Shown here in pieces: positions 1,781 to 19,960 of a stretch of 23,844 nucleotides of DNA (positions are counted from its first letter, which is position 1; each line of letters starts with the position of its first letter). The translations under genes and the position numbers were made by a program. The stretch is from assembly GCA_964618805.1 (NCBI GenBank), contig CAZUBM010000010.1, forward strand, positions 1 through 23,844, written 5' to 3'. The notes below the pieces were generated by a model that did not search any database, had not been told where the DNA came from, and saw only the letters and a list, made by a program, of their open reading frames with translations. This DNA comes from an uncultured Nitrososphaerota archaeon (GTDB lineage: Archaea > Korarchaeota > Korarchaeia > Korarchaeales > Korarchaeaceae).

Positions 1781-4700
1781 TTAATTACGTCTCTCCAATT
1801 TTTCCTTAAGTTCCTTGTAAGTTTTTTCGCTTATTTCTCCTTTTCTATATCTTTCCTCCAACCTCTTCAGCTTTTCTGCAACATCAGCAGCCTTCTTAGG
1901 CTTCCGCCCCTTCAAGGCAATCGTGATCCCTGCTGCAGCAGCAACAGCTAGAGCAATGGCTATGTACTGAGGCTTAATCAACGTCCAGAAAGACCTTAAG
2001 GCCGAAGGCTTGGCATGGATCCAAGAGGTAATGTGCGGGTCCAGTGGATTTGGATCCTCCCCATCCGGCACCCCATCCCCATCTGTGTCCTGAGATTTTG
2101 AATTTGTGTGGAAGAATCCTTCTTCAATATCGTCTGGCACCCCATCCCCATCTGTGTCCGTCTGGTTTTCATGAGGCATTGGAGCTACCCTAACTAATAC
2201 AAAGTCTGGATAAGAATCTCTCTCCCCATCTGAAACTATCAGTTCTACAGGCCATGCCCCAACTGGGAAGGTGAGATTTGGAGTTGGCTCCGTAGAGACT
2301 CCTCCTCCCTCTAAGAAGTTCCCAACCCATCTATAGGTAAGAGATCTACCCAAAGGGGAGTAAGAACCTGTTCCATTTAAGATTACAGTTGCAGTACCGT
2401 TTGGTCCAGCCACCGCAAAGACATCCGGGCCTGCATCTGCCACTGGACCTTCAGAGCTTGGGGAGAGGTCAATGGTTTCGTCCCAGTGACCGTCGCCATC
2501 TTTGTCTATCATGATTCTCACCGTCTTAAGGTCGTCCCAGTTCGGAACTATCCTATGAATCTCTCCTGGGCCTATCGATAGGCCGTCTCTAGAGAATTCG
2601 AGAAGCCTATCGGGAAGTGTACAAACTAACTTTAGATCATAGCTGGCTTCCCTTAAACCATCGTTAGAAAGCTGCAGAAACTCCCCATTTGGATCTGTCT
2701 TTATGCCAAGCAAGTTGTCCTTCGGAAATCTAATTATCCTTAGAAAATATCTTCTGCCATAAAGATTCTCCCGGCTCATCTTCTCAAATTCCAAGAAGAA
2801 TGACTTTTCTCTGGACTTCGGTGAGAAGGAGATTGATAGGTTGCTGGGATCTAGCCCTATCATGTCGACAGATCCCGGTTCCGTTTCAACATTGCTGAAA
2901 GCAAGAAGGCCATCAGTACAAATCTCAGTTATCAGATTGTAAGTGCCTGAGGAATCTCCCACAATCTTGTGCAAATAAGTGTTATTTTCAGCTAGGAAGT
3001 ATAGTTCTGGAACTGGTTCTTCGTCCTTCACTCCTATCAATGGAATTCTTGCAGCGAGGGGTATCCCTGTGCTTGGATCCCAGTTCATCCATCCATCTTC
3101 GGTGTAGAAGAACCTCCCTTGAGAATCTTCTATTTGCTCGGTGTGCGCCGAACCAAACACGAGCTCTGCCAGAAGATCTAAGCCTATTTCCAGAAGATCA
3201 CCACGCGAAATACCATCTGGATTACCGGTGAGCAAATCCATGGGAATTGATCCTATTGGATGCCAAAACTCGCCGAGGGAGCCGCCCCAAACCTCTCCTC
3301 CACCTAGATCATACTTCCAACTGTAACCAAAGAGATGGGGTGTAAGATTAATTGTGCTTTTATGATCGGATCTCTCCATAAAGCGGAATGGTTTGTTTGG
3401 ATCGTAAACTTTGATGGCAATCTTTCCATCTGACAATTCCTCCAGATCATAGGCGACCATAGCATGTCCCTCTCTCCACGATTTGCAGATCAATACGATT
3501 ATTGGACTCTCCAGCTCCCCGTTTTTGTACGCCCTTACCCTTTCTATTAGCTCTTGGCATTGCCTTTGGCTGGGATCAATAGCCTCTCCGACGCCAATAA
3601 TATAGGTGTCGAGAAATCCTCCTCCCAGGGATTGCATCGAGTACTGCCATAAGTGGTTCCTACGAATGGCGTCCAACAGATCCGATCCGTGCATGGTATC
3701 ATAGTCAGGCCATCCGGCTTGGCGAGTTAACCAGTCCCAGTTCTCCCATGACAGGCCTTCTCTCACCTGTATGACGCCCTCGTGTATATCCCATCTGGTT
3801 TTACACATGCCAAAGCAGACACCATTCCTAGTAACTCCCGATAGCGCTAGCCAAGCGGTAAAAGCTATTGCCTGCGGGGCGCACTCAGGACATTCCGCCA
3901 ACGTTCCCAAAAAGCAGCAATCACTCTCGTCGAAGAAGTAGCACCACTCGTCCCAGGAGATTGGGCGCCATCCTTTGTTTACCATGGGCAAGCCAAAATC
4001 GTACCTGAACCTATATCTATGAACTGGAATCCAAACCTTTCGCACTAGTTCCACGTCCTCTCCAGGCCTTGCTCCCATTTTGATCGGAAGGCGTATAGTA
4101 AGCGTTCCGATAAGCGTAGAGACTCCTTCAGGGAAAGAGTAGGAGGAATCGTCTGGCATTTCAAGGTATAGCCACAGCGTGTCACCTACTGCAGCGTGAA
4201 TGCGCCTTTTCCTCAGTACTCTTAAATCCCTTGCATCTCCACTAACATCAAATCGAGACTGAATTCTATCTAGATCTTCTATCTCCTCCCTCGTTACCTT
4301 GAAGTTAAGCATGATATGTGACCAGTTTCTATTTGCGCCATATGATATTGGATAGCAGTAGACTCCTACATTTCTCATACCAGTTTCAGAGCCAATTGAA
4401 TCTTTAACATGAATATTAACATATTGGAAGCTACCAGTCGTAGCAGCCCTAATTGCTTCTTCCAAACTCGAGTTTTCATCAATAGATTCGATTATAATAC
4501 GAGAACCATCGAGGCGCCACCTGAGCGGTGGAACAAGGTCAAGGCTAACTGTGTAGGGAGGAACTCCGCCTATTATCTCGATATAACCGTGTTGAGGGGA
4601 ACAATAGAGAGGGTAATAGCCCCTCACATGCCTAGTCCAGTTATCCCAGCTCAAGCTCTTGGAAAAGAACGCCAAGTTGCCGAACAAGAGGCTTAGCTCT

Positions 4701-6922
4701 ACCTTTGGGAGGACCGTTATGCCAATCGTTTCCGTATCCCACATGCCTTTAGAATCCTCAACTGCAACCACCACTTCCCTGCTGAGTTCGGGTGTGGTAG
4801 GAGTTCCGGATATTATCCCTTCCCTTGAGAGCGCCAAGCCTTCTGGAAGTGACGTTTTGTTCGCCCAAGTATAAGGAGGAACTCCTCCATAAACGTGTAA
4901 GCCAGCTTCGAAGTGCTCTTCAGCCTTGGCTGTTATCTCAGTGGGAATTATCTCAGGTTTAGAGGGACTAAACCAGACTGGCCTGGGCGAATCTATGAAG
5001 GTCAGCCCAGGAGCTGGATGGCTTTCCATGCTGAAGGTGGTGACTTTCCCTAGGCTCCATCCGCGACCATAGAGGTCTACCACTTCGAGCTCAAAATCGT
5101 AAACATCAGGGCCTTGGCATGCGCTCTCAAAAACTATGAGAGGTCTATCTGGAGCCCAAGAAGGATTCATGTATGAGTAGTCTGAGCTTTCCTTCAGAAT
5201 CCTGATCTCTGATCCGTCTGGCCTCACAACTGCAAGCTTGTACCTATATCCAAGCTCCGCTCCTACGTAGACGGGTTTTGAAAAGGCGATCCACGTCCCA
5301 TCTGAGGACCATGAAGGATGAATCCCCTCAACTGGGGTTCCTTCTCTTGCTTCTATTATTGGAGAGATTGTGGAGCTATCTAAGTCGATAATCCAAAGGT
5401 AGAACTTTCCATCCCCCATCCTGTTGGAGGAAAAGACTACCTTCGATCCGTCTGGAGAAGGACATGGGTCTATGTCAACAAATTCGCCATCCGTGATCCT
5501 CGTCCCTCTGCCGCTTTCTAATCCTTGAACGAATAAATTAAAGGTATCTCCTGTACCGGACGAGTACACAACATACGGTTCCTCGAAAGGACCGCCACTT
5601 AAAGACACAGCGGGGCATATGTCAGGACGGTTGTTATTGGTGAGCCTTACCTCCCCTTCAGGACCTCGTAAATATATCTCAGTGCTTTCAATGCTCCCTT
5701 CCCACTTTACAAAGGCCAAGTAAGTCCCATCTGGGGTGTAATATGGCATGATCGCACCGATCTTCCTATCATCCTCCAAGCTAGCTGGAACAATACGAAC
5801 AATGGCCTCTCCATCCTCACTAGAAAGGTAAAGAGCGTTGGGCTCCGACAATGGACCTTCAGGGCGAGCTGTCTTGTTATAGGAGGAGAAGACGATGGCC
5901 CCGTTGCCGGGTTCAACTGCAGATGGACTTGGAGGAATTGGAGATGCTTCAGGTTTGGCTGTCAAGATCTTCTCCAAGCAATTGTTTTCCTCATCCGTTT
6001 CCTCAACATCTAACTTGGAATCAGTACAAACTTTCACCTCGTGTTGAGGTGGACTGGGTTCCAACGTGTATTCAAAACATCCATTGATCACTTGCCCTGG
6101 AGGCATCTCCCCAGTGAGGCTGATCTGATTCTCAGCTACCTTTATCCCGTCAACGTATAGGGCATTATAAAAGGCAGTTGCAGGTAAGCTAGCCTCTCCT
6201 GAGTTCCTAATTCTAAAGCAGATCTTATCCCCTTCCTGCCATAGATCTTCTACTACTAAGTCAGGGAGCTTCCTTTCTATAACTATCTGAGCTTCAGCCC
6301 ATGCTGCCCAGTCCTGACCTGAACTCTGTCCAGCATTGACATACAGGACGAAGTTTCCTTTTTTACCAGCTAAATAACCAAGATCTACTGTTATTGAATC
6401 AAGCTTACCATCATAGGTTGCTTTATGGCTGAAGATGGTATATTTGACAGGAGGGGCTAGCGCCCCTCTAAATTCTTCAAAGTAGACCTCAAAAGTGGCC
6501 CCATCAGTTCCAGTTGCGCCTAAAAGAAATCCTATATTGACCCTAAGATGAGCGTTTTGAGGCACCGTTATCTCGGGGTATCTGCCCAAGATCCAACCGT
6601 TGTTAACCCACTCAGGGTGTGTTTCTAAGACCCTTCCCCAGATGCTTCCATCTTCAAGTCTTGCGTTATATCGATAGAGAACGAAGCCCCTTTCATCCGT
6701 ATCACTCCCTGGAAAGGGCAGGTTTCCGGTTCCACTGCTCCATGACGCCTCAGATGCCTGATCTATGAAGTCATAGTATATCGGATCTCCAGAAGCTAAG
6801 ACAAAGCCTTGAACTAATGGCTGAAAAAACAAAAATAGAAGGAATAAGAGTAACGCAGCCTGAACTTTTTTCCTATTCGCCTTTACGCGGCCCTTAGATA
6901 AAGAAGGAGTATTTTTTGCCAA
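1781..6922 (-). CDS. Large multidomain surface protein: signal peptide, beta-sandwich, CARDB, TolB/PD40 beta-propeller, Ig-like, papain-like Cys protease-type domain, PKD-like, DTDGDG Ca-binding repeats, TM helix, SHOCT
   Basis: LPDLVV...VEETDEENN (CARDB); PSPDGSKVVFSSNR and PSWSSDGTWIAF (PD40); GGVPPYTW...LPEGLALSREGIISGTPT (Ig); GVCFGM/GHAMVAY/VYDPN; PVADAGPD; DTDGDGVPD x2; EKLKRLEERYRKGEISEKTYKELKEKL; TTG start with GAGGAG RBS. Confidence 0.9.
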   Translation of the reverse strand: MAKNTPSLSKGRVKANRKKVQAALLLFLLFLFFQPLVQGFVLASGDPIYYDFIDQASEASWSSGTGNLPFPGSDTDERGFVLYRYNARLEDGSIWGRVLETHPEWVNNGWILGRYPEITVPQNAHLRVNIGFLLGATGTDGATFEVYFEEFRGALAPPVKYTIFSHKATYDGKLDSITVDLGYLAGKKGNFVLYVNAGQSSGQDWAAWAEAQIVIERKLPDLVVEDLWQEGDKICFRIRNSGEASLPATAFYNALYVDGIKVAENQISLTGEMPPGQVINGCFEYTLEPSPPQHEVKVCTDSKLDVEETDEENNCLEKILTAKPEASPIPPSPSAVEPGNGAIVFSSYNKTARPEGPLSEPNALYLSSEDGEAIVRIVPASLEDDRKIGAIMPYYTPDGTYLAFVKWEGSIESTEIYLRGPEGEVRLTNNNRPDICPAVSLSGGPFEEPYVVYSSGTGDTFNLFVQGLESGRGTRITDGEFVDIDPCPSPDGSKVVFSSNRMGDGKFYLWIIDLDSSTISPIIEAREGTPVEGIHPSWSSDGTWIAFSKPVYVGAELGYRYKLAVVRPDGSEIRILKESSDYSYMNPSWAPDRPLIVFESACQGPDVYDFELEVVDLYGRGWSLGKVTTFSMESHPAPGLTFIDSPRPVWFSPSKPEIIPTEITAKAEEHFEAGLHVYGGVPPYTWANKTSLPEGLALSREGIISGTPTTPELSREVVVAVEDSKGMWDTETIGITVLPKVELSLLFGNLAFFSKSLSWDNWTRHVRGYYPLYCSPQHGYIEIIGGVPPYTVSLDLVPPLRWRLDGSRIIIESIDENSSLEEAIRAATTGSFQYVNIHVKDSIGSETGMRNVGVYCYPISYGANRNWSHIMLNFKVTREEIEDLDRIQSRFDVSGDARDLRVLRKRRIHAAVGDTLWLYLEMPDDSSYSFPEGVSTLIGTLTIRLPIKMGARPGEDVELVRKVWIPVHRYRFRYDFGLPMVNKGWRPISWDEWCYFFDESDCCFLGTLAECPECAPQAIAFTAWLALSGVTRNGVCFGMCKTRWDIHEGVIQVREGLSWENWDWLTRQAGWPDYDTMHGSDLLDAIRRNHLWQYSMQSLGGGFLDTYIIGVGEAIDPSQRQCQELIERVRAYKNGELESPIIVLICKSWREGHAMVAYDLEELSDGKIAIKVYDPNKPFRFMERSDHKSTINLTPHLFGYSWKYDLGGGEVWGGSLGEFWHPIGSIPMDLLTGNPDGISRGDLLEIGLDLLAELVFGSAHTEQIEDSQGRFFYTEDGWMNWDPSTGIPLAARIPLIGVKDEEPVPELYFLAENNTYLHKIVGDSSGTYNLITEICTDGLLAFSNVETEPGSVDMIGLDPSNLSISFSPKSREKSFFLEFEKMSRENLYGRRYFLRIIRFPKDNLLGIKTDPNGEFLQLSNDGLREASYDLKLVCTLPDRLLEFSRDGLSIGPGEIHRIVPNWDDLKTVRIMIDKDGDGHWDETIDLSPSSEGPVADAGPDVFAVAGPNGTATVILNGTGSYSPLGRSLTYRWVGNFLEGGGVSTEPTPNLTFPVGAWPVELIVSDGERDSYPDFVLVRVAPMPHENQTDTDGDGVPDDIEEGFFHTNSKSQDTDGDGVPDGEDPNPLDPHITSWIHAKPSALRSFWTLIKPQYIAIALAVAAAAGITIALKGRKPKKAADVAEKLKRLEERYRKGEISEKTYKELKEKLERRN
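2067..2159. repeat. Identical 24-nt direct repeat encoding DTDGDGVP twice
   Basis: GGCACCCCATCCCCATCTGTGTCC at 2067-2090 and 2136-2159. Confidence 0.9.
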
Positions 6923-7168: not shown

Positions 7169-7277
7169 TGCCGGGGGCGGGACTCGAACCCGCGACCTCC
7201 GGAATCCACCCATTTCGAGCCCGCAGATGCCGAAGGATTATGAGTCCGGCGCTCTAACCAGCCTGAGCTACCCCGGC
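7169..7277 (-). tRNA. tRNA-Met(CAT), elongator type, with a 34-nt intron; CCA not encoded
   Basis: Minus strand GCCGGGG TA GCTC AGGCTGGTTA GAGC G CCGGA CTCATAA [34 nt] TCCGG AGGTC GCGGG TTCGAGT CCCGC CCCCGGC A; all stems pair; pyrimidine/T tract downstream; G1-C72 argues against initiator. Confidence 0.95.
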
Positions 7278-7689: not shown

Positions 7690-9525
7690 ATGAAGAGGAT
7701 CTGGTTTAAGAAGATCCTTTCACTCTTGCTCTTACTTCTAATTCTGGTTCCTCAAATTGGAGTTTCTGCAGGACCTTCCGTTAGCTCGAGCATCTCCTCT
7801 TCCAGAAAAGTCATAAATCCAGGGCAATCAGTCAGCTTGTCTGCAAGCGCAAGGGCAAGGGACTGCAAGATAGGCTTTTTCGGAGTATATGGAGATGGAG
7901 AAGGCTGGCTGGTCTATAGAAACAACGTAGGGGGAATGAGCACTTCTTGGAGCGGGCTATGGCATCCTCCAAGGAGGCCTGGTACCTACACCGCTTATGT
8001 TAGTGTAACTGGAGTTGATGATAAGGGAAGGGTGGTCTGCTCAGACAAATCCCTTGTTAGTGTCAGGGTTAATGCCCCTCCTTCCGTTTCTCTGATTGCT
8101 GAGCCGGAAGTCGTTTACGAAGGGGATTATGTTTCAATTCAAGTTCACTCTGAGGACTCCGACGGTTCAATAACCGAGCTAACGGTGAAAATTGGAGATG
8201 AAACCCTCTATCAGGGACCTGAACCTAATTGGTCTGGGAGCTGGTGTACTAGCTCTCCAGGAAATTACACCATCGTCGCAATGGCCAGAGATAACAACGG
8301 TGCATGTTCTAGCACATCGAAGCTTGTTCAGGTGAAGAAAAAGGAAGAACAGACGCCCTCACCTATTCCATCCTCTACACCTTCTCCAACTCCTTCCCCT
8401 CCATCCTCATCGTCCACTACTTCAGAACCTTCCTCGGGGGAAGAGAAGAACCAACCTCCTCTTCTTTACATGGAAGTAAGACCCAGGGAAGTTTACTTGG
8501 GGGAAGAGGTAGAGATCTCTGTTCTTGCAAACGATTCAGATGGCTTTGTAGTTCGCCTGATCGTCCAAGCAGGTGAAGAGGTGCTTTACGATGGTCCAGC
8601 CTCGAAATGGAATGGAAGCTGGTTTCCAAGCTCCCCAGGAGCCTATAAAATAGTTTCAAGGGCCTTAGACGACTCTGGAAACTGGACGAATAAGTTCTTT
8701 TTGGTTAGGGTGAAGAGCGAGGGCTTAGGGGAGAACTCAGATCCCTCGATAGAGATATGGCTGAACTCAACTCAAGTAGTGGTTGGACAATCTATAGAGA
8801 TCATAGTTAGGGTTTTAGACCCAGATCCTGGCCAAAATCTGTTTATCAACGTTACTGGGGCTGTAGAAGAGTTTTTCATCGCTGAATCTGGCCAGCTGGT
8901 CGAGAGATCCTACGTAGTTATGCCGGGCCCCGGAAATCACTCCATTCTTGTGAGGGTCGATGACGGGAGCGGGGGGATTTCAGAGGCAAGAGCAAGCTTT
9001 TCGGTCCTTCAGAGGAACCACGATCCCTTCGTAGAGATAACTGTGAACCTGAGCAAGGGGAAGGCCGTTATAGGCGATGTCATACTCGTAGAGGTAAGGA
9101 GTTGGGATCCGGATCCAGACCAAATTGTTTTTGTCGAAATTTTAGGGGAGATCTCAGCCAGCTTTTGCTTTAACTCAAGCGAGGGAAATGTTACGAGAAG
9201 GTACTTGATAGTTGCGGTTGAGGAGGGGAACAAGTCGATAAAGGCAGTTGCAAGGGATAAGAGAAACGGAACCTCTTCGGCCCAAGTCCAGTTCGCCGTC
9301 TACAAGAAAGCCTGGTGGAAGCGCTTCCTTGAGTGGATAGATCCCTGGCCCGAAACTAAGCTTGAGGAGGTGATAATGAAGGTCAGGGAGTGCATCTCCC
9401 TCGGATACTCCGCTAAAGAGATGAAAAAGACCTTGACTGAGTTTCTGGACGGAGATTTCGAGTTCGAAGATATTGTCCTTGATATAGACGGGCTTAGGAA
9501 GGAAATGGTTGGAAAGTTGTTGTAG
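7690..9525 (+). CDS. Secreted protein with about five tandem Ig-like (PKD/Big-type) domains and an S/P-rich linker
   Basis: Signal peptide; repeated NxxP...(S)xDxD...(P)GxYxIxxxAxDxxG units; PSPIPSSTPSPTPSPPSSSS linker; no classical C-terminal TM helix. Confidence 0.85.
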   Translation: MKRIWFKKILSLLLLLLILVPQIGVSAGPSVSSSISSSRKVINPGQSVSLSASARARDCKIGFFGVYGDGEGWLVYRNNVGGMSTSWSGLWHPPRRPGTYTAYVSVTGVDDKGRVVCSDKSLVSVRVNAPPSVSLIAEPEVVYEGDYVSIQVHSEDSDGSITELTVKIGDETLYQGPEPNWSGSWCTSSPGNYTIVAMARDNNGACSSTSKLVQVKKKEEQTPSPIPSSTPSPTPSPPSSSSTTSEPSSGEEKNQPPLLYMEVRPREVYLGEEVEISVLANDSDGFVVRLIVQAGEEVLYDGPASKWNGSWFPSSPGAYKIVSRALDDSGNWTNKFFLVRVKSEGLGENSDPSIEIWLNSTQVVVGQSIEIIVRVLDPDPGQNLFINVTGAVEEFFIAESGQLVERSYVVMPGPGNHSILVRVDDGSGGISEARASFSVLQRNHDPFVEITVNLSKGKAVIGDVILVEVRSWDPDPDQIVFVEILGEISASFCFNSSEGNVTRRYLIVAVEEGNKSIKAVARDKRNGTSSAQVQFAVYKKAWWKRFLEWIDPWPETKLEEVIMKVRECISLGYSAKEMKKTLTEFLDGDFEFEDIVLDIDGLRKEMVGKLL

Positions 9526-10634: not shown

Positions 10635-10762
10635 TAGATTAAGGATCTAGCATCGCTTGGGAAGGAAAGAACCTTCACTTAATCATCAATGATTCTCTTC
10701 ATGAGCACCTAATTCATCCAAAAAATACCTAATTTTAACGGAAATTATGTAAATGAAGTCCA

Positions 10763-12178
10763 TCATCCTTTTACGTCATAGGTTATCAAGCTGAAGTCCG
10801 CCATTCTATCCGATATATCTTGCATTTCCTCGCTCCATGAGGCGATCTGCATCTTGACGGCGTTTGGTCGCCCCATCACATCCAATTGCACCTTGAGTTC
10901 GACGACCTGCCCATAAGCATATTTCAGGGAAGCAACTCGCTCCCACTCACTTGGAGGAGGGTAGCTCGGCTGGATCGCCTTAGCGAGAAATGCCTCAGAT
11001 GAACAAATCCTTATGTGGTGGTCGAAGAGCCCGTCCATATCAGCGTCCAGAAATATGACTACGCCATCGGGCCCGGGCTCGCCAGCATATTCAATCATTA
11101 AATACAGGAAGTTCTCGTCGTTCGTCACGTAGACCGATTTTAAGTCATCTTCCTCGTTGGAGACATCGCCCACGTCGTCTACGGCCAACGGTTCGTATCT
11201 GCGCACCCAGTCATCGGCGAAGCCGTCAATGAATATACCTGCAGGGTTGATTTCATTACGCATATCGCAAACTTCATGAGCAAGACGTTTTGCGATCAGA
11301 TAGTCTCCCGATTTATATGCCTCCTCAGCTTTTGACAGGATATCTTCTGCTTCTTCGGCAAGCAACTGCGAAAAATCACGTATCTGATTTATAACACCCT
11401 TGGCGTCCTCTATAGCCTGTAAGGCATCGTCCTTAAAGGTGCGCATGAATTTGGCAAGATCCTCTTCAGCTTTATTTCTGTAATAACAGTCTTCGAGATA
11501 ATAGCACTTTATCACATTCAAGGGCCCTTCGCCCTGATATCCAGGGACTATCCTATCCTTGTATTTCTGGCCACCTCTCTCAACTTCAACTTCAAAATAC
11601 GTTATCTCAAAGCCCGGCATCCATGACCAAAACGAATAGCCCTTTACCTTTCCATAGGTCTCCTCGAATAAGATCTTGAAGAGCTTAATCTTACCCGCCT
11701 CCAGCTCTTCTTCCGATAACTCACCGTGCCCCCAGAAATCAGTGCCCGCCATCAGCGTAGACTGACTGCTCTCTGGTACCATTATTTCTGGACCAAAAAT
11801 GACGCCTTTGGCTTTGTATTTCTCGTTCAAAGATAAAGAAAAATTCAACAGGTCACGTATGTAGTTGCGCCAATCGTCATACATTCGAACAAGTTCTCCA
11901 TTCATATCGCAAGAACCGAAAACGTCTGTTGACACATAGTCCCATCCCTCGAAGTCATAAACTTCTTTTGTAAGCCCAGCATGATGTAGCTGTTGGGTCC
12001 AGGGATTAAGGTCTATCTTTTGAACAAGTAGTCCTGAGTATACTTTCCTAACTTCAGGTAGCAACTCGTTTGCCCACTTAAACGCCTCTTCATTGAGTAG
12101 TAGTAAGTATAGTTGTCCTGAGGCTACGGGGCTGAATATCTCCACTCCCTCATTTTCGCAGATCTCAGCCCACTCCAT
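10763..12178 (-). pseudogene. 5'-truncated glycoside hydrolase-like protein (C-terminal part of a GH113-like TIM barrel, helical linker, DOMON/CBM9-like domain)
   Basis: WAEICENEGVEIF...WANELLPEVRKVYSG resembles the middle of a GH113-type barrel; IDGFADDW...DDVGD...DLKSVYVTNDENFLYL is DOMON/CBM9-like; in-frame stop 18 codons upstream; no signal peptide. Confidence 0.6.
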
Positions 12179-12581
12179 AATAATCGTTTTAAGATTTCTA
12201 AGCCTATTGGAAAATACAACAGAAGGACATCACATGTGTTAGCGGCCAAAAAGCTCGGTTCAGCGCTGGAGAAGGTAAGATATGTGGTCTCGGATATCAT
12301 ATCCTGTCGACTTTGGACCTATTGCTACTCAGCTGACAAGTACGCTTCTTGGCTTGGAAGAGCTGCAGAACCTTCTAGACAGATGTTGGGCGTGATATCT
12401 TCTCAAAACTCAAGGATGAGCCTCTTATAAGATTAAATCATATCAGAAAGCCTATTTGAAGCAGATTTGCCTTATTTAGCTAATTTGATAGAGAGGTGAA
12501 GGGAAGAGGTTTTGTTATGCACCATATTATCAAGTGTAATATAATATATACTTACATTGTTTAGTATGTGTGTGAGCTGAC

Positions 12582-13610
12582 ATGGAAACGAGGAAGCTAA
12601 TGAGGCTTGGAAGATCGTCTATAGTGATATCGCTCCCAAGAAGTTGGATTAATATGAACAAACTTAAGAAAGGAGATATCGTATCGATGGCAGTACAGAG
12701 AGACGGTTCCTTGTTAATTTTACCTGGAATCAGAAAAGAGATACCCGTTAAGAAGATCAGTCTTGTAATCAAGCAAGACGATGATGAACGCTTCATTGCA
12801 AGGAAAATCATAGCTTGTTACCTGAACGGATACAGTGCTATCGAACTTATATCACCGAAATTCTTCTTAGCTAAACAGCAAAGAGTCATAAAAAAGGTGA
12901 TATCAAGCCTGAAAATGAGTATTATGGAAACAAGCCCTAGGAGAATTTATTTAGAGAGCCTACTTGATGAATCGAAAGTTTCCGTTTCCAGAACGTTAAG
13001 AAGGATCCACATGATAATTATTTCGATGTGCCAAGGCATCACAGATGTCCTAAGAGATTGGAACATTGAGCTTGCCAAATCCTTCTATAGCCTATATGAT
13101 GAGGTGGATCAATTCACCCTGCTACTCCTTAGATTGTCTAAAAAGGGTATAGAAGATCCCATGTTGACTATTGAGGTCGGTCTTGAGCCTAAAGATTGTT
13201 TGGACCTTACAATGTTAGCTTATAAGCTTGAGCGCATCGCTCATTGCTTAGCTGACATAGCTCAGCGTGTATTGCTGTTGAACAAGCTAGGCCAAAAGCT
13301 TCCGCCCTATCTTCTGGAGCCTCTTCTTGAGATGCATGAATTGGCTTGTAAACTTTACGATGAAACAATGAAGGCATATTTCTCACTTGATATAGAGCTA
13401 GCCAATAAAGCCATAGACTCTATAGCTGAAGTGGAAAAACTAAGCCAGAAAGCTTCGGAGGCGCTGGTAAAGGAGACTAATTCTGCCGTTGTCTGTGCGT
13501 TCTGTTACATGAGGGAAAAGATCGAAAGCATGGCGAGATATTCGGTCGATATCGCCAAGCTAGTCATAAATAGGAGTTGCCTTGCAATGGAGAAAGAGTT
13601 TGAAAAATAA
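12582..13610 (+). CDS. phoU: Archaeal phosphate uptake regulator-family protein (AbrB N-terminal domain plus two PhoU domains)
   Basis: METRKLMRLGRSSIVISLPRSW...LKKGD (AbrB); RKIIACYLNGY; DEVDQF; LERIAH. Confidence 0.9.
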   Translation: METRKLMRLGRSSIVISLPRSWINMNKLKKGDIVSMAVQRDGSLLILPGIRKEIPVKKISLVIKQDDDERFIARKIIACYLNGYSAIELISPKFFLAKQQRVIKKVISSLKMSIMETSPRRIYLESLLDESKVSVSRTLRRIHMIIISMCQGITDVLRDWNIELAKSFYSLYDEVDQFTLLLLRLSKKGIEDPMLTIEVGLEPKDCLDLTMLAYKLERIAHCLADIAQRVLLLNKLGQKLPPYLLEPLLEMHELACKLYDETMKAYFSLDIELANKAIDSIAEVEKLSQKASEALVKETNSAVVCAFCYMREKIESMARYSVDIAKLVINRSCLAMEKEFEK

Positions 13611-13618
13611 TGGTTTTT

Positions 13619-15133
13619 TCAATCATCCCTTCTTGAAGGGGAAATCTTAACCTTCTTAATGGCACTCTCAGCCATCTCTGACATCAAAGGGTAATCTAAA
13701 ATACTCCTTCTGTTTAGCCTTACGCTGCGGAGTAATTCCACTAATGTACTATCTCTTGCCCTTCTTAGCGCGAGACCTCCTAGTCCATAGACCCCTGGTA
13801 TAATTTCTTTCATGTCATCATCAGCTTCTAGCCCCTCCACATTGGTGGGCGAACTAGTAGACACATCAACTATGATGGTAAAGAATCTGAGTCTTCGCAA
13901 CATCCCTAGGGTTATCCTATTCTCTAGAGGAACCGTTATGAAGACTATATTAGATTTTCTGAGAACCTCCAACTGGTCCTCGGTTGTAGGAGCCAAGATA
14001 CTCTCAATGGAAGTCATATACTCAGTCAAATGAGAGGGCTCCTCTGCTTCAGGATCAACGTTAGGACATGGGTTAACCAACGTTACTTGACACCCCAGTT
14101 TATACAAGATGATTGCAACGATCTTTGCTGTAATATCATTCCCGAAAACAGCACATCTTCTTCCTATTAATTTATTAAACCTCCTTTCACTCAGAAAATC
14201 CTTAACTTTTGCCACCATTGAGACTGCTGTTGTATATTTTCCTCCAGGATCCAGTACAATTGGAACTTGATTGAGTGTCTGATTTAAGACCTTTAGGAAT
14301 TTGCTGGCTTCCATCATATTGCGGGCGCACACCAATATACAAGTGCGCTCAGATCCATTGGATCCATCCGATGTTACCCTCGCAATCACTTGCTCGATAT
14401 CTTTAGGCGTTAGGTTATTGTAAGAGAAAACTATATCGAATCCAGCCTCGTATCCCAAGCGAGTTATGGGTTCTTCAACCCCATCTGCTCCAAGGATGAG
14501 TAATATGTAAGGTGGCTTGAGGAAAGACAAGGTGTAAGGAGTATTCCCAGCCATGCCCTTAATTATGGCACAGATGTTCTTCCTCAAGGTCTTCGAGCGA
14601 ATGATCATTTGGCTTTGTGAGCTAGCAGGCCTTTTTTGTAGCCTGGCAATTGATACATCGGCACCTAGAGAGTCAAAGAGGATTGCGAGATCCTCAACGA
14701 ACTCCGTATCACATAAATACATGCATTTAACCTCGTCTTTTTTGACAGAACAAGCATAATCTAGAGTTGATCCTCTTCTCGGGATAAAGGGCACACCCAG
14801 TTCTAAGAACAATTTGCTAAAGACATTCTTATCAAAGAATTCTTCCTCTGTTCTCGTCCCAATGTCCTCGGTTGCGAAGTCCGGTTTGAACCTTTTGGCC
14901 AAGTTGAAAATCAAATTTTCAAGTTCTGAAAGAGTTTCCAGTGAATTAGAGTCCCCAAAGGCCTCTCCTTGGGTCTGCTCAGAAATTATGGGGTTTTTGA
15001 AGCCTTTATCAATGATTAAAACCCTCAATTTCTTGTCTTTGAGGGGCTTAAAAATGTCTATGGGATCTAATCTCTTATCTAGGATTAGGAAGCCTATCTT
15101 AAAGCTCTCTGGAGCAGCGCTAAAGTTTTTCAT
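13619..15133 (-). CDS. Divergent MtdA/MtdB-like methylene-H4MPT/H4F dehydrogenase homolog with ~200-aa N-terminal extension
   Basis: GYEAGFDIVFSY, DPGGKYTTAVSMVAKV, VEGLEADDD, GVYGLGGLAL occur in the order of Mtd family motifs; several conserved residues altered. Confidence 0.75.
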   Translation of the reverse strand: MKNFSAAPESFKIGFLILDKRLDPIDIFKPLKDKKLRVLIIDKGFKNPIISEQTQGEAFGDSNSLETLSELENLIFNLAKRFKPDFATEDIGTRTEEEFFDKNVFSKLFLELGVPFIPRRGSTLDYACSVKKDEVKCMYLCDTEFVEDLAILFDSLGADVSIARLQKRPASSQSQMIIRSKTLRKNICAIIKGMAGNTPYTLSFLKPPYILLILGADGVEEPITRLGYEAGFDIVFSYNNLTPKDIEQVIARVTSDGSNGSERTCILVCARNMMEASKFLKVLNQTLNQVPIVLDPGGKYTTAVSMVAKVKDFLSERRFNKLIGRRCAVFGNDITAKIVAIILYKLGCQVTLVNPCPNVDPEAEEPSHLTEYMTSIESILAPTTEDQLEVLRKSNIVFITVPLENRITLGMLRRLRFFTIIVDVSTSSPTNVEGLEADDDMKEIIPGVYGLGGLALRRARDSTLVELLRSVRLNRRSILDYPLMSEMAESAIKKVKISPSRRDD

Positions 15134-15374
15134 TTCAAGATAACATGCTTTTGAATTGTATATATATAGTGTCGTAATGTTATATATACGCTATGATAAG
15201 CTATATACAAAAAAGGCGAAATATACAAGAATTATGGGACATTATCCCTGGCTATCTCTTTGGATTTTAAGATATTGTATGATATTGCATAATACTGTAT
15301 GTTTGGTATATATAATATTACGAGAGAATATATACGTGAAAGACCGTCTTCGTTTCTTGGAGATCAGATTGAGG
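15134..15374. promoter_or_regulatory. AT-rich divergent promoter region with repeated ATATA(C/G) boxes and three tandem 10-mers
   Basis: ATATA(C/G) ending at 15169, 15189, 15208, 15226, 15335; GATATTGTAT-GATATTGCAT-AATACTGTAT at 15271-15300. Confidence 0.6.
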
Positions 15375-17525
15375 ATGAAACTACAGCTAACTAAAACCCT
15401 AGAAGCAATTCCTACTAAGAGATTTCGGGTTTATACGGCTAAATGGAATAGAGAAAGACTTTTAGACGCTATCCTCGATTTTGGTGAAGTAGAACTCTCG
15501 GAAATGAATGAACCTGGTTTCAAAAGGAGAAAAATATCTCGGGATTGCATAGATCCAAGAACTCGTAGGGAAGTTCTAGCAGAACTTAGAAAAATCGAGA
15601 AACTCTTTGGATCCTTGCCTCAAGTGAATTTTGAAGAGAACTCAAAGATACCTGTTTACAGCAATGAGGAACTGAGGGAAATACTGAGGGAGACAAGAAG
15701 AAGGGCAGAATTTCTTCTCATGTTAAAAGACAAAAAATTGGCTGAAAAGAAGTTGAAGGAGCTTGAGAACTTGAAGGCTGAGCTCCTTAAACTTGAAGAC
15801 AGGATATTTTCCTCTCTCAGTTCCCGCTCCGATCTTAAGGGTAAATCAGGTGAAAAGTCATACACTAAGATCTTCAGAGTCCTCTGTAAGTTAGATATCC
15901 ATTTCAGACAGCTTTTTGAGCTAGCTTTTGCGGCTAAAAGGGCAAAAGCAGACCCAATTCGCGTTCAAAGAATCTTAGAAAAGGCAACCAAAATTGCTGA
16001 GTCTGCCAAAATGAAATTAGAGGATCTAGATATCGAAAAGACTATCCTCAATCATGTTGAATTAAAGCTAAATGAGATATTGGATTGCCTTAAAAAACTC
16101 CAAAAGCTGGTCCAGAGCGAGAAAGAGAAGGAAAGCTCCTTGCTGGGGGAAGAATTGGAATGCCTCTTAGTTTCTATTCAAGAGTTGAGAGAACTACTAG
16201 CAGATACGGGAAACAGCCTTCTTACTAAGGATGTACTTCATCCTTTGGAGGAAGTCGTTTCAAAATATGTAGAGGAGGCAAAGCCTCTTCTAGAGAAGAA
16301 GAGGAAGCTAGAGGAAGAGATTTCGTTCTTTGAGAAGTTTAAAACAAATGAAGAGGAAGCTAGAAGGCTAGAACGAGAGTTTTGGGATCTGGTAAAAAGG
16401 TTAGTAGCTAACTCTATGATTCCATGCAGAGGTGAGCTCTCTCGGTTCATATATGAAAGTGATAACAAAATTGCAGTATCTGGGTGGGTACCAGAGACTT
16501 TAGTAGATAGCCTTGAAAGGCACCTAAAGTCTAGATTGGGTGAGATGGTCGATTTCAGGGTAACCGAAGAAGAAGGGCCTTCGTACATAGAGTTACCTTC
16601 CATGATACGCCCCTTTAGCTTGCTTACACACAAAATGATGGGATATCCTAAAGGAGGGCAGCTGGATCCCACCTTCCTAGTATCCATTTTCTTCCCAATA
16701 ATGTTCGGAATTATGTTCGGCGATATAGGTCAGGGACTGACATTATTGGTCTTTGGACTTATTCTCAAGAGGAGAGGTGGCCGCCTCAAGGATATTGGGC
16801 AAATTCTGGTACCAATGGGAGTTTGCTCTACAGTCGTTGGATTCCTATATGGTGAGATGTTTCTCAAAGAGATATATGATCCAATTCTCTTCTCTCCAAT
16901 CCATGAACCAATTAAGATAATGGCTTTGGCTGTTTTATTCGGCCTAATACATCTAAATGTAGCTTTTGCTGCAAATATCACTAACAAAGTCCTTGGGGGG
17001 GAGTATTTGTCGATTCTCAGCTATGGTGGGATACTGACCCTAATGATGTACGATTTTGCTGCATTAGCAGCCTACAAGAACGGAGGAGATGTCATAGCGA
17101 CTTTTTCCGATCCTTTGTTTATGGTTGCGTCCATCATATTCTTTGCATCTACGATTGCAATATTGCTTGTAGCGAAGCTAAGGGGACATGGGACCATGGA
17201 AGGATTCATGGAAGTTATAGAAGGTGTTATTGAAGCAGTAATAGGTCTCCTGGCCAATACCCTGTCATACCTTAGGCTTGCTGGTTTCGCAATCTCACAC
17301 GCTGCGTTTGGTATGATGGTTAGCGCTATAGTCGGAGAGGAGTCTGGGATTTCCCCTAGCTTCATAATGGTTATGTTCTTAATGAACATGTTAGCAATGG
17401 GGTTAGAGGGTATAATAGCATTCATACAGGCAACTAGGCTGACACTTTATGAGTTTCTCACGAAGTTCTTTAAGCCTGAAGGACGTTTAATGAGACCAGT
17501 TTCAGTTCAGTTTCAGGTACCCTAA
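15375..17525 (+). CDS. atpI: A/V-type ATPase subunit I (a; 116-kDa subunit family), stand-alone paralog
   Basis: SGWVP, DPT...FPIMFGIMFGDIGQGL, NTLSYLRLAGFAISH with the essential Arg, LEG...FIQATRLTLYEFLTKFF; start moved from 15156 to in-frame ATG 15375. Confidence 0.9.
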   Translation: MKLQLTKTLEAIPTKRFRVYTAKWNRERLLDAILDFGEVELSEMNEPGFKRRKISRDCIDPRTRREVLAELRKIEKLFGSLPQVNFEENSKIPVYSNEELREILRETRRRAEFLLMLKDKKLAEKKLKELENLKAELLKLEDRIFSSLSSRSDLKGKSGEKSYTKIFRVLCKLDIHFRQLFELAFAAKRAKADPIRVQRILEKATKIAESAKMKLEDLDIEKTILNHVELKLNEILDCLKKLQKLVQSEKEKESSLLGEELECLLVSIQELRELLADTGNSLLTKDVLHPLEEVVSKYVEEAKPLLEKKRKLEEEISFFEKFKTNEEEARRLEREFWDLVKRLVANSMIPCRGELSRFIYESDNKIAVSGWVPETLVDSLERHLKSRLGEMVDFRVTEEEGPSYIELPSMIRPFSLLTHKMMGYPKGGQLDPTFLVSIFFPIMFGIMFGDIGQGLTLLVFGLILKRRGGRLKDIGQILVPMGVCSTVVGFLYGEMFLKEIYDPILFSPIHEPIKIMALAVLFGLIHLNVAFAANITNKVLGGEYLSILSYGGILTLMMYDFAALAAYKNGGDVIATFSDPLFMVASIIFFASTIAILLVAKLRGHGTMEGFMEVIEGVIEAVIGLLANTLSYLRLAGFAISHAAFGMMVSAIVGEESGISPSFIMVMFLMNMLAMGLEGIIAFIQATRLTLYEFLTKFFKPEGRLMRPVSVQFQVP

Positions 17526-17549
17526 ACAGGTGCGATATGAGGGGATAAA

Positions 17550-17966
17550 ATGAGTTTATTCGGAGCGTGTAAATACCAAACACCTGACGGGAAGACTGGT
17601 TTACAGTTCTCCCTAGGAAATTTCCCATCGGGCAAAGCAGTTATCTCAGTAGATTGTTACTCTGCTGAACATCCCGAACACGGAAAGGTTACTGTGGTAG
17701 TAACCTCTGTAGAGGATAAACGTGATTTCTCACTGTATTATCTTATTGAAATATTCGGCAACCCTGGAGAAGTTGTAAAGGACGTTCTAAGAGATCTTAT
17801 TACTATAGAATCGCGATTGTACCTTTTTCATATTAGATTTAGACCTATAGGGGAATACACGCCCACAAAAAATGTCTTAGAATCTATAGGATTAAGGAAT
17901 GTGAAACGACTTACGGCTCTCCGAAATCCTGATGGTACCTATAGCCTCAGACCATCTCCTGAGTAA
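17550..17966 (+). CDS. Hypothetical soluble protein, probably co-transcribed with atpI
   Basis: 138-aa ORF, ATG preceded by GAGGGG, 24 bp after the atpI stop; no family recognised. Confidence 0.7.
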   Translation: MSLFGACKYQTPDGKTGLQFSLGNFPSGKAVISVDCYSAEHPEHGKVTVVVTSVEDKRDFSLYYLIEIFGNPGEVVKDVLRDLITIESRLYLFHIRFRPIGEYTPTKNVLESIGLRNVKRLTALRNPDGTYSLRPSPE

Positions 17967-18057
17967 ATATGGACGTTTTACCGTTTCTGATCTCCTTCTT
18001 GATGATTTAGTAGAAGAGTAAAGAGGAGAGCAGTTCTTAATAGCACTTAGCGCGCGC

Positions 18058-18314
18058 GGAACTCCATTAACGTCTTCGGTGTATACGTCGACCTTAAACC
18101 CTCCGGGGGAGTACAACGTTTCCTTAACGAGCCTGAAGCCCCTCCTCTCCAGGTACTCAAGGGTGGTGCCAGAGGTCAGAGCCATGTCTATGTCCCTGGT
18201 GCTCCTATACTTCCACCCGAGGTAGCCCAAGACCGCTATAGCCCCGACAAAGACTACCCTGCCCCCGAGCAGCTTAGCCACCATCTCAACCTCATTCCTA
18301 AGTAGAGCGGACAA
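18058..18314 (-). pseudogene. 3'-truncated nucleotidyltransferase (AbiEii-like type IV TA toxin)
   Basis: VVFVGAIAV...RSTRDID...KVDVY motifs; plausible sequence ends at DVNGVP at the repeat, after which the ORF runs antisense into the 138-aa gene. Confidence 0.7.
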
Positions 18315-18555
18315 GCCCCATCCCCCTCATGTCCTCCAGAACCTTCCTAACGGTTCTTGCCTCGTAAAGGCCGCGAACCCTCACCTCCTCCGGGTACAGG
18401 AGCTCTATGGCTATGGCGTCTAGGACGCTCCTCCCTCCCCTGGCCAGGCAGTCGAGGTGGACCCTTGCGATGCCGTCCAGCTCACCGTATGGCTTTAGAA
18501 GGACCAAGTTCGCCTCCTCCGGCTCGGTCCCAACGAAGCCCCTCCTTCTAAGCCC
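18298..18555 (-). pseudogene. 5'-truncated partner gene (probable antitoxin C-terminal part) of the nucleotidyltransferase
   Basis: Frame open from the right repeat (GLRRRGFVGTEPEEANLVLLKPY...LDCLARGGRSVLDAIAIELLY); overlaps the NTase start by 17 bp; same high GC. Confidence 0.5.
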
Positions 18556-18565
18556 TAGCGCGCGC

Positions 18566-18602
18566 TATAAACTTTCTTACTTCTCATAATATTATGAGAA
18601 GT
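18566..18602 (+). promoter_or_regulatory. TATA-like box followed by a perfect 24-bp palindromic operator
   Basis: TATAAA 18566-18571; ACTTCTCATAAT|ATTATGAGAAGT 18579-18602. Confidence 0.65.
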
Positions 18603-18635
18603 GTCAAACTGAAGATAAATTGGAGGAACAGCAAA

Positions 18636-18940
18636 ATGCGCAGCGTAGCGTGAAGCAGACAAAAATTATACAAATGTAAGACGACCTTTAAAGCGGGAAT
18701 GATATTAGGCTTCCTCTCTGCAAGGGGGGCTTGCTAAATACTTTGATGTCTCCTCTACGACCAGGGGGGGAGTGGCTGGCAGAGCTAGAGAGGGATGGGT
18801 TGATAGAAATAAGGCAATATGGCAAAATGAAAATCCCATTAGTCCCTGATAAAGGAGGTAAGAAAATACGACAGCTACAAGGTCTATTACAGGATGATAA
18901 AGGAATATGGCGCGCACTGATCCATAAGACGAGTGTTTAA
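18636..18940 (+). pseudogene. Decayed winged-helix regulator
   Basis: GGAGG plus ATG 18636, in-frame TGA 18651; MILGFLSARG, LAKYFDVSSTT and EWLAELERDGLIEIRQYGKMK lie in different frames that switch at poly-G tracts 18724-18729 and 18764-18770. Confidence 0.6.
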
Positions 18941-19122
18941 ACAGATATAAGATTTACACTGGTCCCGTCTTATAAGGGCCATCGCAATGGGTATTGCATT
19001 CCTATTACTGTAACCCAATTTATAGAACTAATTTATCAGATTTTTGGATATAAATAAGCGCTAAAATAGTGAAATAATAAAGGAGAAGTGCCCATATAGG
19101 AGTTCTAAATTAGGCAACCGAC

Positions 19123-19163: not shown

Positions 19164-19394
19164 ATGGGTAAGATGATAACGGTTTCCGCCAAGATAAGCG
19201 AGGATCTTAAGAGAAAGATTGATGAGCTTGGGATAAGCCCTTCAGAAGTCATAAGAAGAGCCCTAGAGGAGGAAGTGAGGAGAAAAAGAAGGGAATTACT
19301 TAAGAAGAGGTTAGAGGAAGTGAGTTCTATTCTTTCAAAAGTTGAAAGGGAGGAGTGGATCAAGGCCATCAGGGAGGCCAGGGAGGAGAGGTAA
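19164..19394 (+). CDS. vapB: VapB-type antitoxin (ribbon-helix-helix)
   Basis: ITVSAKISEDLKRKIDELGISPSEVIRRALEEEV...WIKAIREAREER; TAATG overlap with the PIN gene. Confidence 0.9.
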   Translation: MGKMITVSAKISEDLKRKIDELGISPSEVIRRALEEEVRRKRRELLKKRLEEVSSILSKVEREEWIKAIREAREER

Positions 19395-19780
19395 TGCTCT
19401 TCGACGCCTCAGCCATAATTTCAATGTGTATGAAAAGAAAATTCGACGAGCTGTTGGATGGATGGACCATAGAACTAGCTATATATGAAGTGGGAAATGC
19501 CATATGGAAGCAAATATTCCTTAGGAGAGAGCTAAACTTAGATGAGGGATCGAGAGCGCTAAAGGGCATCCTAGATCTTATAAATGAAATGCGGATTTGG
19601 AAAATCGAGGACAAGATTAGTATCCTTAAAATCGCTGTCAATGAAGGAATAACGTACTATGACGCTTCTTACCTAGTGGCTGCTATCGAAGGGGGTTTTG
19701 CTCTTGTTACAGACGATAAAACGCTCTCTCAAGTTGCCAAAAATTACATTCAGACTATTTCAGTCGATGAATTGAGATGA
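19394..19780 (+). CDS. vapC: VapC-family PIN-domain toxin
   Basis: MLFDASAI, YEVGNAIWK, ITYYDASYL, LVTDD; start placed at ATG 19394 overlapping the antitoxin stop. Confidence 0.92.
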   Translation: MLFDASAIISMCMKRKFDELLDGWTIELAIYEVGNAIWKQIFLRRELNLDEGSRALKGILDLINEMRIWKIEDKISILKIAVNEGITYYDASYLVAAIEGGFALVTDDKTLSQVAKNYIQTISVDELR

Positions 19781-19960
19781 TGGTTAGAGAATTGGATACT
19801 TTTCCATTGGCTCTTATCTAATATTTACATGGCTGAAGCTAAGAGCCTCTAAGAGCAAGATTGAAGAACCCTATATCGAGCTTTTAGATTTTATGGAGGA
19901 TCTCGATCATAAAAAGTTAGGAGAATAGGGTTTTTGATTTAAGAATGGAGTTACATCTAG

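Follow-up and report, generated by a model that had tools for sequence, protein, structure and literature searches.

Why would an archaeon carry a second gene for the membrane stator of its A-type ATPase, and carry it next to a transcriptional regulator and a relative of a one-carbon (C1) enzyme? The question is raised by a stretch of 23,844 nucleotides (the window; positions are counted from its first letter) on contig CAZUBM010000010.1, here C10, of an uncultured hot-vent archaeon (Nitrososphaerota) placed in the Korarchaeaceae by GTDB. The host genome (assembly GCA_964618805.1, here G000) comprises 2,176,148 bases (2.18 Mb) with a completeness of 93.7%. Four genes are at issue: phoU (12582..13610, + strand), which encodes a 342-aa AbrB-PhoU protein with a SpoVT/AbrB DNA-binding N-domain and two PhoU repeats; the gene for the Mtd-like protein MtdL (13619..15133, - strand; 504 aa, with an N-domain at residues ~28-205 and an MtdA-type fold at ~206-504); atpI2 (15375..17525, + strand; 716 aa), an orphan paralog of A-ATPase subunit I (a); and p138 (17550..17966, + strand), which encodes a soluble ORFan of 138 aa. 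In the table of open reading frames (ORFs), all four are intact as first listed, atpI2 with a longer 5' end that is corrected below. An earlier reading of the letters and ORFs alone (the sequence-only reading) had described four intact adjacent genes and had suspected an undescribed module. The adjacency was recovered exactly; the module took a different shape, as described below.

We consider it about an even bet (probability roughly 0.5) that these genes belong to a lineage-specific mini-regulon that would express an alternative stator isoform. It would be a composite, put together on a strain-variable island and wired to one operator, and the reader of that operator is probably the island's own AbrB-PhoU protein. 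To our knowledge, the archaeal A-ATPase has been regarded as a single enzyme whose subunits have one gene each, and switching of a-isoforms has been considered eukaryotic. The locus would therefore offer a testable prokaryotic case: two atpI genes, one regulator, three operators, and all else single-copy.

A second subunit I gene apart from a complete A-ATPase cluster

Families were assigned in the window by Pfam and NCBIfam profile scans of ORF translations. AtpI2 matches V_ATPase_I (PF01496) with 66.7 bits (cut-off 30.7) and lies below the NCBIfam equivalog cut-off (best model NF004434, 135.9 versus 777 bits). PF01496 matches two frames of G000, one on C10 and one on contig C8. The latter carries a complete A-ATPase cluster, with the genes for F, H, E, A, B, D, and C on one strand and those for K and I converging from the other. 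By tblastn, each of these nine subunits occurs once in the genome, except I, which also matches the window; no other atp gene was found on C10, all of them being on C8. The sequence-only reading had called atpI2 an orphan and had allowed that it might be the genome's only atpI, separated from a split operon. Given two PF01496 frames and a full cluster on C8 whose other subunits are single-copy, the orphan status holds and the split operon drops out.

A mechanical ORF call begins the gene at 15156; the start was corrected to the ATG at 15375 by full-length alignment to the canonical paralog, which opens at MKLQLTKTLEAIPTKRF. The two copies are 45% identical end to end, covering canonical residues 4-720, with 61% identity in the membrane half and 33% in the cytosolic half. 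A full cytosolic N-domain and a membrane domain are present, and hydrophobic segments are confined to residues 430-686, in the C-terminal third as in the canonical copy. LSYLRL and ATRL of AtpI2 align with vSYtRL and gaRL of the solved chain 8wci_P and with SYLRL of 6o7v_a; we take the arginines in these motifs to be the essential ion-path residues. Domain order and both arginine motifs are thus shared with the canonical archaeal A1Ao subunit I. Unlike the canonical gene, atpI2 lies away from the other atp genes, has an ORFan as its partner, stands divergent to a pseudo-MtdA gene, and is preceded by a promoter motif of its own.

A close parallel for such a pair of genes comes from eukaryotes. 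The a-isoforms of the V-ATPase (yeast Vph1/Stv1, mammalian a1-a4) are likewise paralogous a subunits with a conserved membrane half and a divergent cytosolic N-half, and AtpI2 belongs to the same PF01496 family, matching the solved chains 6o7v_a and 7uw9_a. The eukaryotic isoforms are well studied and sort the pump to different organelles. In contrast, the archaeon has a single membrane, and its spare copy, a putative component of the enzyme, sits on a strain-variable island. We found no literature description of subunit-a isoforms in an archaeon or of an orphan atpI.

The gene has a narrow distribution. Across 61 related genomes, five of them from the same genus, only G000 and G004 carry an atpI2-type gene (97% identity), which is two of the five. 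The other three genomes of the genus (completeness 71-90%) have only the canonical type, at 45-47% identity. A protein collection adds one full-length ortholog with 76% identity. In a metagenome scan, one locus of 20 is of the atpI2 type (L098, 97%, on an 8,833-base contig like that of G004), and the rest reach at most 34%. In a phylogenetic tree, the three atpI2 sequences form the sister group of the genus's canonical copies, all eight of them (SH-like approximate likelihood-ratio test, SH-aLRT, 100), and an approximately unbiased (AU) test rejects nesting of atpI2 with its own host subclade (p = 0.004; the group was named after seeing the tree). The sister position and this rejection imply that atpI2 split off before the genus radiated. 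It may therefore be regarded as an old paralog, or as a xenolog from a close sister lineage, that is still intact.

Second subunit I genes are rare in the phylum, where two other genomes among 27 of high quality have two subunit-I frames. A distant second gene occurs in genome G036 (C22:30984-32399, L141; 634 aa), where a K-like gene lies at a distance of ~2 kb. The 20 kb examined around it contained neither an A nor a B gene, and the main cluster of that genome is on another contig.

Downstream of atpI2, p138 follows after 24 nt with its own ribosome-binding site (GAGGGG), and the two genes are probably co-transcribed. The product has no Pfam or NCBIfam family, and no paralog was found in the genome. 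Its homologs number three in all, at 100, 77, and 59% identity, and the ratio of nonsynonymous to synonymous rates (dN/dS) against G004 is 0.12 (7 changes, 2 nonsynonymous and 5 synonymous). A protein atlas returned nothing usable for p138 or for the MtdL N-domain (best 0.87). All four genes occur together in G004, the only other genome DNA with atpI2. For each of the homologs of MtdL, atpI2, and p138 at 76-77% identity (the P0002, P0013, P0016 set), the longest contig on record has 11,606 bases, and these three homologs presumably share one contig.

Two alternative explanations can be weighed on this evidence. AtpI2 and p138 could work outside the A1Ao complex, for instance in the stator of a different membrane machine or in a regulated ion path with some further partner, and MtdL might be a soluble protein that binds a ligand for them. 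Such a role would fit the strongly diverged cytosolic half and the constant presence of the ORFan p138 beside atpI2, and the G036 gene next to a K-like gene indicates that subunit-I genes outside full clusters do occur. However, the residues that AtpI2 has retained are those of a normal stator, and no second K (c-ring) gene was found in this 93.7% complete genome. In rotary ATPases, subunit a conducts ions solely at its interface with the c-ring. We hold a role outside the ATPase to be very improbable.

The other alternative is that atpI2 is a redundant duplicate on its way to being lost and MtdL a decaying relic, neither having a role. The presence of atpI2 in just two of the five same-genus genomes is what loss would predict. 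Nevertheless, the gene predates the radiation of the genus and is intact. Of 79 positions without variation across 19 canonical Korarchaeaceae sequences, it retains 73, and its dN/dS against G004 is 0.18 (19 nonsynonymous, 29 synonymous changes). We give decay little credence for atpI2 and return to it for MtdL below.

A 16-nt motif upstream of phoU, MtdL, and atpI2

The case for joint control of atpI2 and its neighbors comes from the non-coding DNA. The stop codons of phoU and MtdL are separated by 8 bp (13611-13618), tail-to-tail, which agrees with the convergence and gap given in the sequence-only reading. MtdL and atpI2 are divergent, as had also been noted, and because the atpI2 start is 15375, the region between them measures 241 bp (15134..15374). 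This region had been called repeat-rich, a description that fits well: it holds 14 of the window's 18 TATATAY matches (shuffled sequences average 5.9 for the whole window) as well as a 29-nt imperfect inverted repeat (15161-15189 and 15306-15334, 86% complementary). It can be described as two mirrored arms, each composed of a 16-nt motif and a TATATA box.

The motif is a quasi-palindrome, GTAATRTWATATATAC, with exactly three sites in the genome, located upstream of phoU, MtdL, and atpI2. Copy 1 (GTAATATAATATATAC, 12536..12551, + strand) ends 30 nt before the phoU ATG and lies over the likely, and only, TATA-like run there. Copy 2 (GTAATGTTATATATAC, 15174..15189, + strand) is 40 nt before the MtdL ATG, and copy 3 (GTAATATTATATATAC, 15306..15321, - strand) is 53 nt before the atpI2 ATG. 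For MtdL, a TATATA run at 15158..15168, 25-35 nt before its ATG, is the likely TATA box, and for atpI2-p138 the TATATAY scan points to the run at 15328..15335 as the probable one. Copies 2 and 3 are each placed just upstream of a second TATATA run, in mirror-image geometry. A degenerate pattern of the motif has 3 matches in the window against 0.04 expected, and searches of both strands with each single copy, allowing two mismatches or fewer, retrieved only these three sites in the 2,176,148 bases. Between G000 and G004, none of the 10 differences in 402 non-coding bases falls inside a motif copy (p ~0.28, not significant), and four are within four bases of one.

From these patterns, phoU, MtdL, and atpI2 look co-regulated. 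The sequence-only reading had envisaged a regulated unit, and the genome-unique motif before these three genes speaks for that part of the claim; what did not survive is the idea of an old conserved module, as the distribution of the regulator and its partner makes clear.

The AbrB-PhoU/MtdL pair and its usual context

To survey MtdL relatives we used one genome per species. A relative was present in 285 stretches, of which 80 loci, mostly from Bathyarchaeia, were kept. An AbrB-PhoU homolog occurs in 76 of the 80 and is the directly adjacent gene on the opposite strand in 68. The spacing between the two stop codons ranges from -17 to +25 nt in 62 of these 68 pairs; 31 pairs overlap, 19 of the 68 by exactly 8 nt. 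In 56 loci, the gene directly upstream of MtdL, with the same orientation, encodes the F420-dependent methylene-tetrahydromethanopterin (H4MPT) dehydrogenase, F420-Mtd (PF01993, 396 bits); in 2 more loci that gene is one position further away, and Ftr- and FrhB-like genes are common nearby. PhoU and MtdL as a pair usually belong to the setting of the H4MPT C1 pathway, next to F420-Mtd. In contrast, atpI2, p138, or p140 (a further gene of the window's island) was found in only one of the 80 loci, the near-identical G004 contig. The four genes are therefore a composite and not an old conserved module, contrary to what had been suspected.

The window AbrB-PhoU protein itself matches PhoU (PF01895, 49.3 bits, cut-off 23.5) in two stretches and the SpoVT/AbrB-type MazE_antitoxin family (PF04014, 26.4 bits, cut-off 24.7), and it does not reach the cut-off of the PhoU equivalog TIGR02135 (48.8 versus 130.25 bits). 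It has the two-domain build common to the archaeal AbrB/SpoVT-PhoU regulators (COG0704-type "phosphate uptake regulator"). A published account lists proteins of this kind as archaeal transcription factors (PMC6316755). The subfamily differs from PhoU of the Pst phosphate system in that its fixed neighbor is MtdL and not pst genes. Identity is 36-44% to the partners in MtdL loci (lower where a contig end cuts the match) and at most 31% to PhoU paralogs in 39 Korarchaeia genomes. Being nearer to its Bathyarchaeia counterparts than to paralogs of its own class, the protein, together with MtdL, looks imported as a unit. It retains 46 of 62 family-conserved columns, and its root-to-tip distance in the tree (3.65, against a median of 3.64 for the others) gives no sign of acceleration. 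Three cysteines, C206, C305, and C308 (DCxD ... CxxC), recur in 90% or more of the 36 AbrB-PhoU sequences compared from the subfamily and are a possible metal or redox site. Complex prediction for AbrB-PhoU with MtdL scored 0.00 in both runs (alignments of 36 and 43 rows), which is evidence neither way.

The widespread triad of F420-mtd, a ~575-aa MtdL, and a convergent AbrB-PhoU gene (L019-L097, e.g., L077:9001-12737) is also present on two Atabeyarchaeia chromosomes, and we found no literature description of either the pair or the triad. It bears on how uncultured Bathyarchaeia run and control the H4MPT methyl branch and suggests, for the first time, a possible function for a subfamily of the archaeal AbrB-PhoU proteins, many of which await study. 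One record titled Limnocylindrales bacterium (L083) has a Bathyarchaeia-type MtdL/AbrB-PhoU pair that nests among Bathyarchaeia, possibly on a misbinned contig.

MtdL, an apparent pseudoenzyme of the MtdA fold

MtdL has a single Pfam match, to Mpt_N (PF09176), which in bacterial NADP-dependent methylene-H4MPT dehydrogenase forms the N-terminal domain; at 22.9 bits it lies below the cut-off of 27, whereas Bathyarchaeia relatives score 94-110 bits. In a structural model (mean predicted local distance difference test score, pLDDT, 71.6), the C-terminal ~300 aa adopt the MtdA fold (Foldseek match 6tlk_A, E 6.3e-16, TMt 0.79; root-mean-square deviation, rmsd, 3.6 over 300 columns). The profile of the Bathyarchaeia-type family matches Methylorubrum MtdA end to end (E 3.6e-46). 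Assignment of the 504-aa protein to the archaeal F420-dependent Mtd was rejected since it has no PF01993 match; the true F420-dependent Mtd of the genome is at G000:C21:6387-7202, and no other MtdA-type gene was found in a search of the genome. Ftr and two Mch are also encoded on other contigs (C21, C6), indicating that the H4MPT C1 pathway is still present. F420-Mtd occurs in G000 and three of its four genus mates, so that the genus has the H4MPT methyl branch, although the enzyme was found in only 6 of 40 genomes of the class.

MtdL is therefore an N-domain without a Pfam family fused to a bacterial-type MtdA fold. The fold of its C-terminal ~300 aa is common with MtdA of Methylorubrum extorquens, an NADP-dependent methylene-H4MPT dehydrogenase (PDB 6tlk, 1lu9); compared with that enzyme, MtdL has an additional N-domain of 200-270 aa, and the window copy lacks the GxGxxG motif. 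Where the family has GTGAVG/GTGxVG and MtdA itself has GTGPVG, the window protein reads GNDITA, and the relative P0002 reads GDDITA. GTGxxG is retained in P0003 and in every Bathyarchaeia member. Close relatives of the window protein are 96, 77, and 63% identical, and the 63% relative retains GTGTTG; loss of the glycine motif is therefore more recent. The wider set of relatives is large, mostly from Bathyarchaeia, with proteins of ~575 aa at 25-34% identity. Relative to these, a helical hairpin of ~65 aa is missing from the N-domain of the window protein. Of 172 columns with conservation of 95% or more in 40 Bathyarchaeia-type sequences, the protein retains 62, and it has lost 74 of 119 conserved columns in the MtdA part. 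The sequence-only reading had called this gene a degenerate Mtd. The loss of the motif and of most conserved columns bears out the degeneracy, but the type was mistaken, the fold being that of the bacterial NADP-type MtdA and not of PF01993.

The MtdL tree places the window clade inside the Bathyarchaeia radiation, apart from the sole other Korarchaeia member, although its long branch makes the placement unsafe. The stem of this clade measures 1.43 changes per site, compared with ~0.05-0.25 on neighboring branches, and the acceleration in the window lineage is not in doubt. With its NADP motif lost and an evolutionary rate several-fold higher, MtdL appears from its sequence to have become a pseudoenzyme. 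Is it simply decaying, as the relic explanation introduced above would have it? Loss of most family-conserved residues and a dN/dS of 0.47 (G000 versus G004, very few changes) are what one would expect of a relic. However, the frames are intact in the relatives at 96, 77, and 63% identity, and many substitutions are common to all three clade members, including the 77 and 63% relatives. This combination suggests a burst of change followed by new constraint, and for MtdL, too, decay seems a poor explanation.

A bolder version of the isoform proposal gives MtdL a task. The dead MtdA protein, ancestral partner of the AbrB-PhoU repressor or activator, would act as its ligand sensor, for methylene-H4MPT/NADP(H) or a related C1/redox signal, alongside stator isoform switching that is island-borne and controlled by the AbrB-PhoU operator. 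If true, energy conversion would respond to the state of the methyl branch of the Wood-Ljungdahl pathway. We think this version improbable as a whole. The sequence-only reading had likewise inferred an Mtd-fold sensor that tunes the rotary ATPase or an ion channel; our results lend no support to sensing by MtdL or to contact between MtdL and the ATPase.

The N-domain, 200-270 aa in length, gave few leads. A Pfam scan of 33 members yielded noise only and no consistent family, a profile search of the PDB had a best E of 0.27, and Foldseek had a best E of 6e-3, with nothing below 1e-3. An alignment to ChaN (2g5g_X; VIA-align Z 8.4, rmsd 4.4 over 149 residues) ranks 32nd among matches to helical hairpins. 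A TraB/ChaN/Tiki-like fold is thus only a lead, and a search of the genome with the TraB family PF01963 returned no match. The N-domain also occurs as ~40 stand-alone proteins of 200-265 aa without a Pfam family (P0083, P0097, and P0103 among them) and, once, in reverse order, C-terminal to an MtdA domain (P0107). The reverse-order fusion together with the stand-alone forms argues for a functional tie between the N-domain and the MtdA domain.

A strain-variable island

The four genes lie in a block of ~6.8 kb (12203..19000, right edge approximate) that also includes p140 (17892..18314, - strand) and p69. In G002, a 90% complete genome of the same genus, the orthologs of the flanking genes are ~2 kb apart, compared with 7.8 kb in the window, and the block is missing at the syntenic site. 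Homology to G002, at 96% nucleotide identity, ends at window position 12202, inside a 700-aa G002 gene; it returns weakly at 19006 and fully at 19932, with 77% identity. At the left edge, the window ORF at 10763..12178 (- strand) encodes 471 aa of this 700-aa surface-type protein, starting at about residue 230 of the G002 ortholog, and is a 3' remnant cut by the island. No flanking direct repeats, integrase-like gene, or ARAGORN tRNA was found at the island borders.

The arrangement does not depend on a single assembly. The contig of G004 and the contigs of two runs, X3 and X4, begin at 12193. Independent contigs in the runs of two other studies span phoU, MtdL, and the start of atpI2 (12193-15514), and a further contig of run X4 spans atpI2, p138, and p140 (15516-18286).

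Such a mosaic region invites the explanation that the PhoU-MtdL pair, atpI2-p138, and p140/p69 are chance neighbors, the motif a by-product of promoter copying as the pieces came together, and the C1-type pair and the ATPase subunit unlinked. The pair is without atpI2 in 75 of the 76 loci that hold it, a truncated surface gene with 96% identity stands by genes with 77%, toxin-antitoxin-like genes are near, and no shared operator was seen at the Bathyarchaeia loci. A copied promoter would, however, still give shared control. In addition, the motif precedes MtdL and atpI2 in the same mirrored geometry and is unchanged between G000 and G004 while flanking bases have changed, and the 76-77% homologs of MtdL, atpI2, and p138 list the same 11,606-base longest contig. 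We judge chance association unlikely.

How an alternative stator might be controlled

In the mini-regulon that we propose, the AbrB-PhoU/MtdL pair would have left its F420-mtd context in this lineage, probably by transfer, and atpI2 would be a home-grown spare stator duplicate that joined it on the island together with its private p138. A dimeric or oligomeric DNA-binding protein, most simply AbrB-PhoU, would bind the three 16-nt operators; AbrB-PhoU would thereby regulate its own gene and switch MtdL and atpI2-p138 on and off together. When made, AtpI2 would replace the canonical subunit I in the single A1Ao complex. As it would use the same K ring and the same E/H stalks, the result would be an isoform with altered regulation or coupling. 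We infer the identity of the motif binder and the assembly of AtpI2 into the ATPase, and the same applies to the signal read and to any role for MtdL or p138.

Several observations weigh against this proposal. Testing of the motif came only after it had been spotted, its AT-rich core coincides in part with TATA-like sequence, and its lack of change relative to G004 is not significant statistically. The three copies could have come from local promoter duplication and not from a dedicated regulator. At 49 Bathyarchaeia loci, the upstream regions of phoU and mtd share a median of 12 of 16 positions, the same as controls, and in none of the 49 does mtd exceed every control; the family as a whole is therefore not marked by a PhoU operator at the partner operon. 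The values of dN/dS between G000 and G004 (0.81 for phoU and that given above for MtdL) rest on very few changes and do not show selection. Identity between the cytosolic domains of AtpI2 and the canonical copy drops to 18% in two 60-residue windows, while the E and H stalks, which AtpI2 would have to fit, are encoded by single-copy genes. No RNA record is listed among the 22 runs that hold the stretch. Finally, only a single lineage, at the genus level, is known to have the arrangement, and atpI2 with p138 is known from only three close genomes.

Neighboring genes

Next to the four genes, the p140/p69 pair (window 17892-18507, - strand) has no assigned family; the 3' end of p140 overlaps that of p138 by 75 nt. 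It is followed by a ribbon-helix-helix and PIN pair of the toxin-antitoxin-like kind (19164-19780, + strand), and at the corresponding site G002 has a different pair, AbrB-type and PIN-like. On the other side, the segment with the remnant gene (window 10723-12202 versus G002:C15) has 96% DNA identity to this different species, compared with 77% for the adjacent peptidase gene, a contrast that suggests recent exchange of the remnant-gene segment.

Further upstream, two other genes encode very large proteins of the surface type. The first (1781-6922, - strand; 1713 aa) has PD40, CARDB, and Ig-like domains, and the second (7690-9525, + strand; 611 aa) has PKD and Ig domains. Between them, Rfam gives a 109-nt tRNA match (7169-7277, - strand; 61.1 bits), probably intron-containing, where ARAGORN reported none in the window.

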